Below are positions 865 to 63,043 of a DNA stretch of 64,000 nucleotides, in pieces. This DNA comes from Octopus vulgaris (taxonomy: Eukaryota). The notes beneath the pieces were generated by a model. That model searched no databases, was not told where the DNA came from, and saw nothing but the letters and a program-made list of their open reading frames with translations. Location: the NCBI GenBank assembly GCA_951406725.2, contig OX597819.1, forward strand, positions 104,532,001 to 104,596,000, read 5' to 3'. Both the position numbers and the translations under genes were made by a program. Position 1 is the stretch's first letter. Each line of letters begins with the position of its first letter.

Positions 865-2084
865 TAAAATAAAACAGAGAAAAAAGAAAAAGAAAAAACA
901 AACGTGGGAACGTAGCACAAGCAATGTATTAATAAGACGCCCGGAGAAAGAAGAGAGTTGTTGTTTTACGTTTCGAGCATGGTTCTTCGTCGGAAACAAG
1001 AAAAACAGTAAAGTCCAAAGGGAACGAAGGAAGAAGGAGGAAAAATCGCCAACAGTCCACGTTAACTTACATTTCTGGTGTGACCGGAAGTAGAAAGAGG
1101 AAGAGAAAATGCATTCTGGGAAGGAGAGTGTGAAGATGGTTAGCATGTGTGTATGTGTGTATTAGGGGGGATAGCATGTGTGTGTGTGGTAGCGTGTGCA
1201 TGTACGGTAGCGTGTGTGTGTATGTGTGTGTGGTAGCGTGTGTGTGTGGTATTAACTTTGTGTGTGTTTGTGTAAGTAGTTACTCTGTGTGTGAGTATGT
1301 GTGGTAGGTAGGATGTGTGCGTGTGGTAGAATCTATGTGCGTGTGTATTAATGTTGCTCTGAATGGTCAGCAGCTATAGTGACAGGTGTGTGTGAATGGG
1401 CGAGCGTGGCCGTGTGTGTGAGTGTATGTGATTGTATGTGTGTGTAGATGGAAGGGTGACTATAGAGTCAGAGGCAGTCTGAAAGGTGTGTGAAATGGTG
1501 AGTGTGGCTATGTGTGTGTCGGTGTGTGTGCGTAGACGGACTGGGAATGTGTGTATGAGTTGTGTGTGTGTGCACTCGTGTATGAGTGCGTGTGTGTCTC
1601 TCTCCATGTCACTCTGTCTCTCCCTCTGTATATATATGCGTGTGTGTATGGGTGTGCTTGTACTTGTGTCTATGTGCGTGTGAGTGTGTATGTAGTGTAT
1701 GTGCATGTATATGAGTGTATGTGTGTGTGTGTGCGGGCGGGCGGAGGGGGGTGTTTGATGTGTGCGTGCATGTAAGCGTGTGTGTGTATGGTGTGTGGTG
1801 TGTGGTAAAGGAACATAAAAAAGTAAAAAAATAACACAAATAAATAATGAAAATAAAAATTAGTAATAGTAAAATAATTAAAAAGGTTGTGAATAAATCA
1901 GTAACAGAAATAGAATCAGCCACCAAAAATCAGTAACAGAAAAGGGGTGAGGGGAAAGTCACTGAGAAGAGGGGGTTGTGTTGAGTCCGAACGGAGTTCG
2001 AGTTTGTAGAGTGAAAATGCAATGCTGTTCCAGGCGAACTCTAGAGCTGGTCGATCCATGGTGTAGGTCAAGGCCAAAGACAGT
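865..2084 (-). mobile_element. 3' end of a Penelope-like retroelement: GIY-YIG C-terminus, (CA)-rich 3' UTR and terminal HHR
   Basis: Minus 2084-1959 translates TVFGLDLHHGSTSSRVRLEQHCIFTLQTRTPFGLNTTPSSQ*, matching the R..LEQ..IF.L.T..P.GLN end of PLE endonucleases. An HHR-like motif follows at 999-961. Confidence 0.7.
961..999 (-). ncRNA. Minimal type I hammerhead-like motif, U4C core variant
   Basis: UUGUUU CCGACGA A GAAC-CAU-GCUC GAAA CG UA AAACAA: 6-bp stem I, stem II with one mismatch, palindromic ACGU stem III, GUA site. Confidence 0.6.
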
Positions 2085-3254
2085 GTGTTATTTTCTGTAT
2101 ATGTGTATATATATATATGTATTTCTCATGTATATACAGTTTCATTCTTACATACTCATTACTTCAGTTCACTGGAGGGATAAAAGTAGAATGAAGTATT
2201 ATTGCCTCTTGGCAATTTCCATTGCTCTATGTTATATATTTTAATAATTACTGATATTTATATATTTTATATATTATATAAGTAAAGCATAATATGTTAT
2301 ACATTTATGTATATTGTTATAATTTTAGTAAATAAATTTATTGACATAATATAATGTCTAAAATTTGATGAATACCACCTATTGATCCCCTCCATTTTCT
2401 TATTGCTCTATAAATTAATGGTAAAATATCTCTTTACCCTCACCCATTTATTACACTCGGTAATGTAATTGCCATGCAATGAAAAAGCACTTGGGTATTA
2501 ATAATTGGGTATTCTACCAGCAGTATATTGGATAGATAGTCGGTTGGATTCACAACCTCTAACTTCCTTGGAATTATATATATACATATGGAGGGGGTGA
2601 TATATCTCTGTATTTCGATGATGCAGATACAGTTGTTGATCAAGTAAATTTACATATAAGCGGCTGAATATTCCAAAAAGACGTATACTCTTATCGTAAT
2701 TTCCTGGTAGAGTGTGTGCCAAGGCTGTACCTTTTAAGTTATAGGTACAATGCACATAACGGGATTCTGCACATTTTCCATCTACCCAATTTCACTCACA
2801 TGGTATAGATCGGCTCGAGGTTATAGAAAATAGAATGTGCTCAAAAGCCGCATACACGTTGTTGTGAAGGAGCTTCTTAGCCATTCACCCACACTGCACA
2901 ACCAAACACATTAGTATATGTAGATAGAAGTTAAGTACTGGGGTTTATGCAATCGATTACACCCTTTCTCCAAAATTTATTTCTTGAACTAGAATTCTTT
3001 CAAATTTTGGCACTAGGCAACCATTTTATGAGGAAAGGAGTAAATTACATCGGTTTACCAGTATTTATTGTAACTGTACTTATTTTAACCACAGTGGAAT
3101 TTCAACCACAGTGGAATTTGAGCTCAGAATGCAAAGATCTGTCAGAAATGCTGTTAAGCATTTTGTTAGACACACAAACGATTCTTCTCGCTCACCATTT
3201 TCACCTACCCCTAAATTCCTTTCTCTCATAAGCATAAGGTTTGAAATATTTGAA

Positions 3255-3900
3255 GAAGGGGCTAAGTCGATTACATCGACCTCAGTGTTCTACTGGTATT
3301 TATTTCATCGAGCCCGAGAGGTTGAAAAGGCCAAGACGACCTCGGCGGAATTTGAACTCAGAATATAAAGACGGGTGAAATGTCGCTAAACATTTTGGCA
3401 GGCGTGCAAATGATTCTACCAGCTACCTGTACCTATATTGGTTTCAAATTTTGGTATATTTCCAGCAATTTCGGAGGTGGAGATAAGCCTATTACATCGA
3501 CCCCAGTGCTCAACTGCTAGTTATATTTCATCGACCCTGTTAGGATGAAAGACAAAATCAACCTCGACAGAATTTGAACTGGGAAATAAAGGCGGACGAA
3601 ATGCTGCTAAGCATTTTGTCCGGCGTGCTAACGCTTCTGCCACCTCGCCATCTTAACATGTACCTATATATAAAGTAATTATTACATAGAAATGGATTAG
3701 CAGAATCTTTAGAGCATCGAATAAAATGACTTGCTGTAGTTTTACAGTTCTTTATGTTCTGCGTTCCGATCCTGCTGAGATCAACTATGCGTTTCCTCCT
3801 TTCGAGGTAGACAAGATAAAGTACCAGTTAAGTAATGGGGTCAATGCAACCGAATTGCCCCTCCTCACAAAATTACCAGCCTTGTACTAAAATTTCGAAT
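3255..3900. mobile_element. Cluster of three diverged Meta-type SINE copies (about 3255-3425 minus, 3445-3652 minus, 3690-3900 plus)
   Basis: Each matches the head and central domain of the intact copy at 11227 (GAGTTCAAATTCCGCCGAGGTCG..., AAGTACCAG...GGGGTCGAT). Confidence 0.8.
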
Positions 3901-62148: not shown

Positions 62149-62211
62149 TGCATATATATATATATGTGCATATATATATATATATATATATATATATATA
62201 TATATATATAT

Positions 62212-63043
62212 ATTATATTATATTGAGGGTACTACTATTCGTAGATACCAACACGCTAAGAGGGACCAATGCGGTCAAAACTACTAAAAATAAACAAAAT
62301 TTTACCGAATGCAAAACTTCAAAACACATCATTTTAAAAAAGAATTCAGTTACATACCACATGTGATTTCGCATTTAAATGCAGAATATGCATTTCTATG
62401 TTCATCAGTGCAACAAACTCAAGAAATATAATAGAAAAACATAACATTACAAGCTCGATAGCCAACCGTAGAATTCGTCGTAGCATGTCCGAATGTTTAT
62501 CTTTATATATCTATGAAAATGGCGGGCTCATTTGCAATGCATTTCGGTTACAAATTGTCTATTCGGAATAAAAATTCAGTATTGAACTATTCCGGTGGAA
62601 AATATAAATTAACAATTGAGGATAAAATCTTTAAAAGAAATTATCAGTAGTCAGCGTGAAAAACCTCGTAAGAGAAAAAATCCGTAAATTCTTCCTCATT
62701 GAAAATATTCATTTATATTATATTGAGGGTACTACTATTCGTAGATACCAACACGCTAAGAGGGACCAATGCGGTCAAAACTACTAAAAATAAACAAAAT
62801 TTTACCGAATGCAAAACTTCAAAACACATCATTTTAAAAAAGAATTCAGTTACATACCACATGTGATTTCGCATTTAAATGCAGAATATGTTGGTATCTA
62901 CGAATAGTAGTACCCTCAATATAATATAAATGAATATTTTCAAAGAGGAAGAATTTACGGATTTTTTCTCTTACGAGGTTTTTCACGCTGACTACTGATA
63001 ATTTCTTTTAAAGATTTTATCCTCAATTGTTAATTTATATTTT
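62212..63043. mobile_element. 500-bp HHR-bearing unit in partial tandem plus inverted arrangement (PLE pseudo-LTR or retrozyme-like)
   Basis: 62221-62390 is identical to 62721-62890; about 62889-63043 is an inverted copy of about 62598-62753. Confidence 0.85.
62349..62414 (-). ncRNA. Type I hammerhead ribozyme motif, canonical core
   Basis: GUUGCA CUGAUGA ACAU-AG-AAAUGCA-UAUUC-UGCAUUU-AA-AUGC GAAA UCACAUGUGG UA UGUAAC: 6-bp stem I, palindromic CACAUGUG stem III, GUA site, A.C mismatch at the base of stem II. Confidence 0.75.

Follow-up and report, generated by a model that had tools for sequence, protein, structure and literature searches.

The hammerhead motifs in a 64,000-nucleotide stretch of octopus DNA (hereafter the window, G000:C6:104532001-104596000) fall into families, each with a characteristic base pair linking positions 3 and 8; the covariation of the two positions, the copy number of the families and their location are directly observed. 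The motifs are probably minimal type I hammerheads found 3'-terminally in Penelope-like elements (PLEs) and in short repeats of likely PLE origin, and the pair of each family likely keeps its motif self-cleaving, a joint reading to which we assign a probability of about 0.6. The window has a G+C content of 37% and contains many microsatellites, which dominated a repeat search of it; the genome comprises 2.8 Gb in 227 contigs, ~30 of them large.

A first-pass annotation had listed eight such motifs, and regular-expression mapping of the window finds all of them in place, the one at 56654 as a decayed copy. The G3-C8 minimal hammerhead at 17202..17251 on the minus strand (N3 17244, N8 17239, H17 17209) has a 7-bp stem I, a 5-bp stem II, an extra G after A9 and a palindromic stem III of 6 nt. 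It resides in a short (TA)n-flanked repeat (17121..17439) that is an inverted pair with a one-sided tail of ~55 nt and a second motif arm, 17253-17296 on the plus strand, devoid of stem I. The predicted structure of this repeat's read-through transcript is a near-perfect hairpin (-218 kcal/mol, z -36), which would bury the ribozyme fold. A sister subfamily with a different loop II is represented by the G3-C8 hammerhead at 27653..27697 on the minus strand (N3 27693, predicted cut after 27657), within the element 27510-27755. Two U3-A8 hammerheads in the interval 30834..30926, namely, 30834-30872 on the minus strand (N3 30868) and 30890-30926 on the plus strand (N3 30893), are the arms of a single inverted insertion (~30651-31009) and have the same architecture as the G3-C8 family, with a palindromic stem III of 4 nt; the motif at 30893 passes our descriptor with a 3-bp stem I. 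The A3-U8 hammerhead at 52711..52743 on the plus strand (N3 52715, N8 52720, H17 52739) is a 3' remnant from a Neptune-type PLE family. The decayed A3-U8 motif at 56658..56690 on the plus strand (N3 56662), 304 nt 3' of the endonuclease of the PLE at 54866..56357, has a broken stem I and a mismatch in stem III, unlike the rest of its family.

The remaining two listed motifs have C3-G8 cores and long stems II. The one at 57190..57269 on the plus strand (N3 57193, bulged stem II with A10.1-U11.1, 3-bp stem I) belongs to a young repeat, 57120-57327, that is flanked by (TA)n and has at least 40 identical copies, and lies ~60 nt from the repeat's 3' end; an initial doubt over this motif was later dropped. 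The one at 62349..62414 on the minus strand (N3 62408, near-palindromic stem III of 12 nt) is part of a multi-copy repeat with 351 copies. The closing pair G10.1-C11.1 is present in the G-C, U-A and A-U families, the corresponding nucleotides being A-U in the 57193 motif and A·C in the 62408 motif. The named motifs display stems I, II and III in type I topology around the core, decayed in the 56662 copy, and GAAA, A15.1-U16.1, NUH and the palindromic stem III are present in the window motifs. When monomers and dimers are folded, with a core that cannot be modelled, an intermolecular palindromic stem III is predicted, clearly so for 52715, 30868, 59813 (see below), 62408 and 57193 but not for 17244, 27693 and 30893.

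Six of the eight named motifs lack a literal CUGANGA box, differing from it at positions 3 and 8, and would be missed by a search based on that string, as the first-pass annotation held. We file these non-CUGANGA motifs as variants of PLE minimal hammerheads, in the same way as U3-A8 is filed by Cervera and de la Pena (2014, PMC4209133; here and below, comparisons with sources identified by PMC number cover part of each source). The eight are not independent: 17202 and 27653 belong to the same family, 30834 and 30890 to the same insertion, and clustering by flanks reduces the six non-C3 motifs to three lineages.

Three further motifs, absent from the motif descriptions of the first-pass annotation, broaden the set. 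An A6U variant at 29602..29637 on the minus strand (U6 motif 29633) keeps C3-G8 and has a free N7; a U4C variant at 962..998 on the minus strand (C4 motif 993) keeps C3-G8 as well and accounts for the start of the range given in that annotation. The third, at 59779..59818 on the minus strand (59813), is the hammerhead-like motif of the PLE at 59993..62146, lies 179 nt 3' of its endonuclease and, in this copy, has an A3·C8 mismatch; its family, with one extra core nucleotide, includes 19 A-U and 8 A·C members (n=27). The claim that U4 and A6 stay fixed is contradicted by the motifs at 993 and 29633 and by the 9,617 U4C and 17,941 A6U copies in the genome.

Genome-wide copies were counted with exact patterns, each against a reversed-pattern control that gave 0 matches for the A6U and U4C patterns and for those listed next. 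Apart from the two families just mentioned, the U4C one being related to the 962-998 motif, the G3-C8/U3-A8 pattern has 10,720 copies and the A3-U8/U3-A8 pattern has 3,055 (2,125 with H17 fixed); G3-C8 alone, searched as the 5' half of the 17202-17251 motif, has 6,004 exact copies. The proposal of family-specific PLE hammerhead variants present at very high copy number is thus borne out. The largest families carry a changed U4 or A6, and cores other than CUGANGA seem to predominate in the families counted. The genomic copies are mostly truncated, decaying insertions. We rejected a general non-C3 pattern whose palindromic stem III has 4 nt: most of its 11,735 matches (1,671 in the control) read the A6U family out of register, which leaves it uninformative on positions 3 and 8.

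These counts bear on the trivial explanation, namely, that a loose pattern finds chance matches in A+T-rich DNA. With positions 3 and 8 free, the descriptor gives six matches in the window, four of them Watson-Crick at 3-8, and four named motifs pass it; 30 local dinucleotide shuffles yield a mean of 2.3 matches and 0.57 Watson-Crick matches, with a maximum of two Watson-Crick. About two matches per shuffled window, along with the lack of Rfam matches, is what such an explanation would lead one to expect, but it is hardly credible given thousands of exact matches against none in the controls, the fixed position of the motifs past PLE genes and the covariation of stem I between subfamilies. Furthermore, in 600 kb sampled at preset positions, all 13 strict matches (seven loci) are paired at 3-8, compared with no matches in ten shuffles. 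The comparison with Rfam suggested in the first-pass annotation left the named motifs below the gathering score, which is reached by no family in the 64-kb window, nor in the loci L181, L199, L243, L198 and L121. At E<=5, the best 150 of 310 Rfam rows for the window are microRNA and hairpin matches to microsatellites and foldbacks, and were discarded.

Within families, the pair at 3-8 is predominantly Watson-Crick. According to hand counts, the first 100 matches listed for the A3-U8/U3-A8 pattern include 60 U-A, 29 A-U, 7 U·G and 4 mismatches; the first 100 listed for the G3-C8/U3-A8 pattern include 60 G-C, 33 U-A, 1 U·G and 6 mismatches. Because copies are not independent, we also counted lineages. 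When 110 motifs are clustered on the downstream flank alone, all seven multi-copy clusters have a Watson-Crick majority, as do all 12 non-C3 lineages examined (six in this genome and six in metagenome contigs). Permutation of position 8, with state labels that are our majority calls per family, reached the observed 14 paired out of 14 genome families in 2 of 200,000 trials, and the observed 19 paired out of 20 distinct metagenome motifs in none of 200,000. The excess of Watson-Crick over mismatched combinations that the first-pass annotation anticipated is accordingly found across families. An alignment of 20 rows chosen from paired examples, and so an illustration, contains 8 CG, 6 UA, 3 AU and 3 GC.

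A founder effect, whereby a few master elements fixed paired bases by chance and copy number merely multiplied them, would account for thousands of copies descending from few lineages, such as the three behind the six non-C3 motifs of the window. It would also fit the fact that mismatched forms can spread, as have an A3·C8 subfamily (8 of 27) and U3·G8 subfamilies (7 among the 100 matches listed). Nevertheless, we consider this scenario quite improbable, given the Watson-Crick majority in 12 of 12 lineages and the two changes that are needed for most swaps.

Similar pairs are found next to PLE reverse transcriptases (RTs) in metagenomes. A search with an alignment query identified 368 PLE-RT loci (one with a single-protein query gave no confirmed locus), and the best 80 of the 368 were scanned for motifs. 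These 80 loci contain 23 sense-strand matches scoring >=12, of which 22 are paired: 16 C-G, 4 U-A, one G-C (L199) and one A-U (L243). The remaining match, L230, is G·U, deviates at core position 6 and seems to be spurious. On the same 80 loci, the reversed control gave no matches and the antisense strand gave five, of which two are well-formed C-G motifs and the other three are poor. The presence of all four pairs beside metagenome PLE RTs indicates that the four-way swap extends beyond a single genome. A tree of the endonucleases (28 rows, two duplicates dropped, bootstrap support unsettled) places the A-U and U-A groups next to each other and the C-G elements of other organisms outside them, suggesting at least two compensated swaps within one clade. 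The C-G label of one tree row, L035, was rejected, the motif belonging to a separate inserted element.

The window contains two host elements that retain parts of their genes. The broken Neptune-type PLE at 54866..56357 on the plus strand consists of RT and thumb pieces, a CX4CxxC linker and, at the C terminus, a GIY-YIG endonuclease, interrupted by stops and frameshifts, with 63-64% identity (tblastn) to the protein of L181; the second broken Neptune-type PLE, at 59993..62146 on the minus strand, extends from RT to GIY-YIG (57-65% identity in tblastn). In both, the CX4CxxC linker precedes the endonuclease and an A3 motif terminates the element, at 304 and 179 nt past the endonuclease, respectively. 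L181 is a Neptune-type element of pLTR-ORF-pLTR structure that encodes an RT with DKG and a GIY-YIG endonuclease and carries a U3-A8 hammerhead in both pLTRs, 3,468 nt apart. Homologs of the element protein match RVT_1 and GIY-YIG, and one from Octopus bimaculoides is 58% identical. In all DNA examined, 30 of 44 endonuclease matches are followed by a motif within 700 nt downstream. The motifs of the host elements sit 120-430 nt past the endonuclease, whereas that of the Poseidon element PAc overlaps the ORF start (Frangieh et al. 2024, PMC11167929). A reading of A3-U4-G5 as the start codon of the element was likewise rejected because the motif lies past the ORF stop in L181 and in the window elements.

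Judged by their sequence features, the hosts of the A3-U8 family and of one U3-A8 family appear to match Neptune-type PLEs as described by Craig et al. (2021, PMC8557442), with which they share an RT with DKG, a CX2-5CxxC linker (not exclusive to Neptune, being common to Nematis) and, at the C terminus, a GIY-YIG, as well as partial tandem or inverted copies, a one-sided tail and microsatellite targets. Apart from these two families, the pLTR/RT-GIY-YIG setting is seen for A6U at one duplicated locus, where the motif trails an RT-endonuclease remnant that, by its motifs, looks Poseidon-like. The G3-C8 and 30834-type U3-A8 families consist of short repeats (~150-250 nt), often inverted, with a one-sided tail and often in (TA)n, at which no RT gene in cis was found; we infer PLE derivation from the short size, inversion, tail and (TA)n, all as in PLE insertions. 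Head-to-tail arrays of the kind formed by non-LTR retrozymes were not seen for the window variants, which are single or inverted copies. Elsewhere, a C3-G8 tandem of ~359 bp is present (L121).

How a changed pair could preserve cleavage is suggested by the geometry of the core. The 3-8 pair positions the 2'-OH of nucleotide 8, and an isosteric pair could hold this hydroxyl in place, so that pair geometry may outweigh identity. All four 3-8 pairs, in work by Przybilski and Hammann from 2007, are said to be cleavage-competent, to a degree that depends on context. The palindromic stem III may join two motifs into a dimer, possibly with the help of the element's own protein, and this dimer would cleave, slowly and after NUH, a precursor RNA in tandem form; for inverted copies, long hairpins are the expected fold instead. 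What selection would then preserve in the master elements is a ribozyme still able to cleave, probably slowly and with protein assistance, that trims the tandem precursor RNA, and lineages might drift between pairs via tolerated wobble or mismatch states. Published work on related hammerheads is consistent with parts of this scheme: the 2'-OH of G8 is essential (PMC8495972), PLE minimal hammerheads cleave weakly and as dimers (PMC4209133), and cleavage by the PAc hammerhead needs the element protein, with an engineered C3G/G8C swap partly restoring cleavage in vitro (PMC11167929). A deep scan of a type III hammerhead speaks against it, activity in this region being rescued by the G-C swap only (PMC9901934).

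An alternative holds that the fold is selected as a structural signal for the RT-endonuclease, for binding, template choice or definition of the 5' boundary, and not as a cutter, so that the variants would be slow or inactive. The most successful families are A6U and U4C, and the short copies with G3-C8 or U3-A8 retain the motif in full, starting ~10-25 nt upstream of it, which implies that their templates were uncut. For PAc, insertion in vitro did not require cleavage and uncleaved RNA was the main substrate (PMC11167929). RNA reads agree with such a signal in that cut-site ends are missing: in three RNA-seq runs, all from a single study whose species is related or identical, with 1,559, 1,198 and 1,118 reads on the G3-C8 element (27510-27755), both strands are covered, no read ends mark the cut at 27657/27656 and the depth is even, with no pile-up of starts or ends. 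This is a weak test, and the pattern fits passive read-through of many copies. What speaks against the structural signal is that the 3-8 pair is a feature of the active conformation, unseen in minimal ground-state crystals (PMC3884650), so that the covariation points to the catalytic state, and that NUH, GAAA and G5 are kept across families. On balance, we regard a purely structural role as unlikely, if clearly less so than a founder effect.

Besides the missing cut-site ends, the dispensability of cleavage for PAc insertion and the failure to find an RT gene in cis for the G3-C8 and 30834-type U3-A8 families, the reading that the family-specific pairs maintain self-cleavage has to accommodate two further observations. 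The A3·C8 and U3·G8 subfamilies were amplified despite the mismatch or wobble, and the largest families alter U4 or A6, changes that resemble the U4C and A6C substitutions reported to lower activity (PMC3088659). Still, to the extent that sequence is a guide, the motifs with swapped pairs likely mark self-cutting RNAs that are missed by standard searches.

Some of the variation is known already. U3-A8 occurs in PLEs and in other hammerheads: among the minimal hammerheads of metazoan PLEs (PMC4209133), it is found in S. mansoni, with ~1,300 matches, and Perreault et al. (2011, PMC3088659) report core insertions, natural U3-A8 and A6C and, in a viroid, U4C, with U4C and A6C as single cases. The minimal hammerheads of PMC4209133 and the window motifs have in common the type I topology, a short palindromic stem III and a short stem I, as well as a frequent extra nucleotide after A9, location in pLTRs for some of the families, inverted pairs 100-700 bp apart and thousands of single truncated copies. 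However, the 56 representatives in Fig. S3 of that paper include only C-G, U-A (two) and U·G (one), with no G3-C8 or A3-U8, whereas here whole families carry G3-C8, A3-U8, U6 or C4. Likewise, the variants in PMC3088659 are rare single cases, not whole families, and the passages compared, figures aside, name no natural G3-C8, A3-U8 or A6U. The PLE hammerhead with a 3-8 pair is common to PAc and the window; the G-C swap was engineered in the former (PMC11167929) and is natural in the latter. By its title, the work of Lunse, Weinberg and Breaker (2016/17) concerns similar small, PLE-associated, dimer-cleaving hammerhead variants. The core search string of PMC8557442 is cuganga, which would overlook the motifs found here.

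On novelty, which the first-pass annotation had flagged for checking, the outcome is therefore divided: U3-A8 in PLEs was already published, but our literature search, with many subscription papers and figures outside its reach, found no report of natural G3-C8 or A3-U8 families nor, with many subscription papers likewise outside, any that combines hammerhead, octopus and Penelope. What appears to be new is a well-supported, natural set of core variants within a known ribozyme class, with self-cleavage as the probable function.

With this set, a tertiary pair already known from crystal structures and from engineered mutants gains evidence that is natural and replicated. The set also implies that consensus-based surveys undercount animal hammerheads, the G3-C8/U3-A8, A3-U8/U3-A8, A6U and U4C patterns together amounting to ~41,000 exact-pattern copies without CUGANGA, with none of those tested scoring in Rfam. 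Because intact, swapped, wobble, mismatched and core-altered families can be compared for both cleavage and success in spreading, they form a ready panel for determining what PLE hammerheads do. More tentatively, and with less than even odds, most hammerheads in this genome and a sizeable share of those in PLEs may have off-consensus cores and be working ribozymes that are rate-tuned or protein-assisted, with PLE lineages having walked positions 3 and 8 through all four Watson-Crick pairs via wobble and mismatch intermediates. The intermediates of such a walk would be those still visible as subfamilies.

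An exact-pattern search of the whole genome yields 17,941 exact copies of a hammerhead family with U at core position 6 (A6U) and 9,617 copies of a family with C at position 4 (U4C), both of which retain the C3-G8 pair. The A6U family is represented in the window at 29602-29637 on the minus strand. Across its genome-wide exact-pattern matches, U6, G8 and the stems are invariant, and position 7 is occupied by any of the four bases, the same pattern as in a constrained hammerhead. No published report of natural A6U was met in the portions of the hammerhead literature covered. A motif at window 962-998 (minus strand) is related to the U4C family, in which most of the matches listed in a genome-wide pattern search have C4. 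Given this C4 majority, some U4 copies that look canonical may be CpG decay products.

At window 14508 (minus strand) lies a further candidate with a C3-G8 core, whose stem II region is long and whose stem III is near-palindromic. Outside the window, stretch L121 contains, at 3083-4550 (plus strand), a tandem of approximately 359-bp units with an identical C3-G8 hammerhead in each, resembling retrozymes, and two further copies on the minus strand.

A genome-wide pattern search also detected, on another contig (G000:C1:70848756 and 70852733, minus strand), two U3·G8 wobble motifs in direct orientation that are separated by 3,977 nt and may belong to one full element with the wobble core in each terminal repeat (pLTR). 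The short G3-C8 and U3-A8 elements mostly start 10-25 nt upstream of the hammerhead (boundary at window 27697; external stretches L129, L140 and L170), and this constant 5' boundary suggests a start site or a reverse transcriptase (RT) stop.

The inverted insertions at window 17121-17380 and 30745-31010 would fold into long, near-perfect hairpins that would be substrates for A-to-I editing. RNA editing is heavy in cephalopods and, speculatively, in cores with the A3·C8 mismatch, editing of A3 could create an I-C pair.

Other retroelements in the window include an RT in a 719-aa open frame at 20441-22597 (plus strand; RVT_1, E 1e-28) and an RT fragment at 35006-35953 (minus strand) with a weaker RVT_1 match (E 3e-5).
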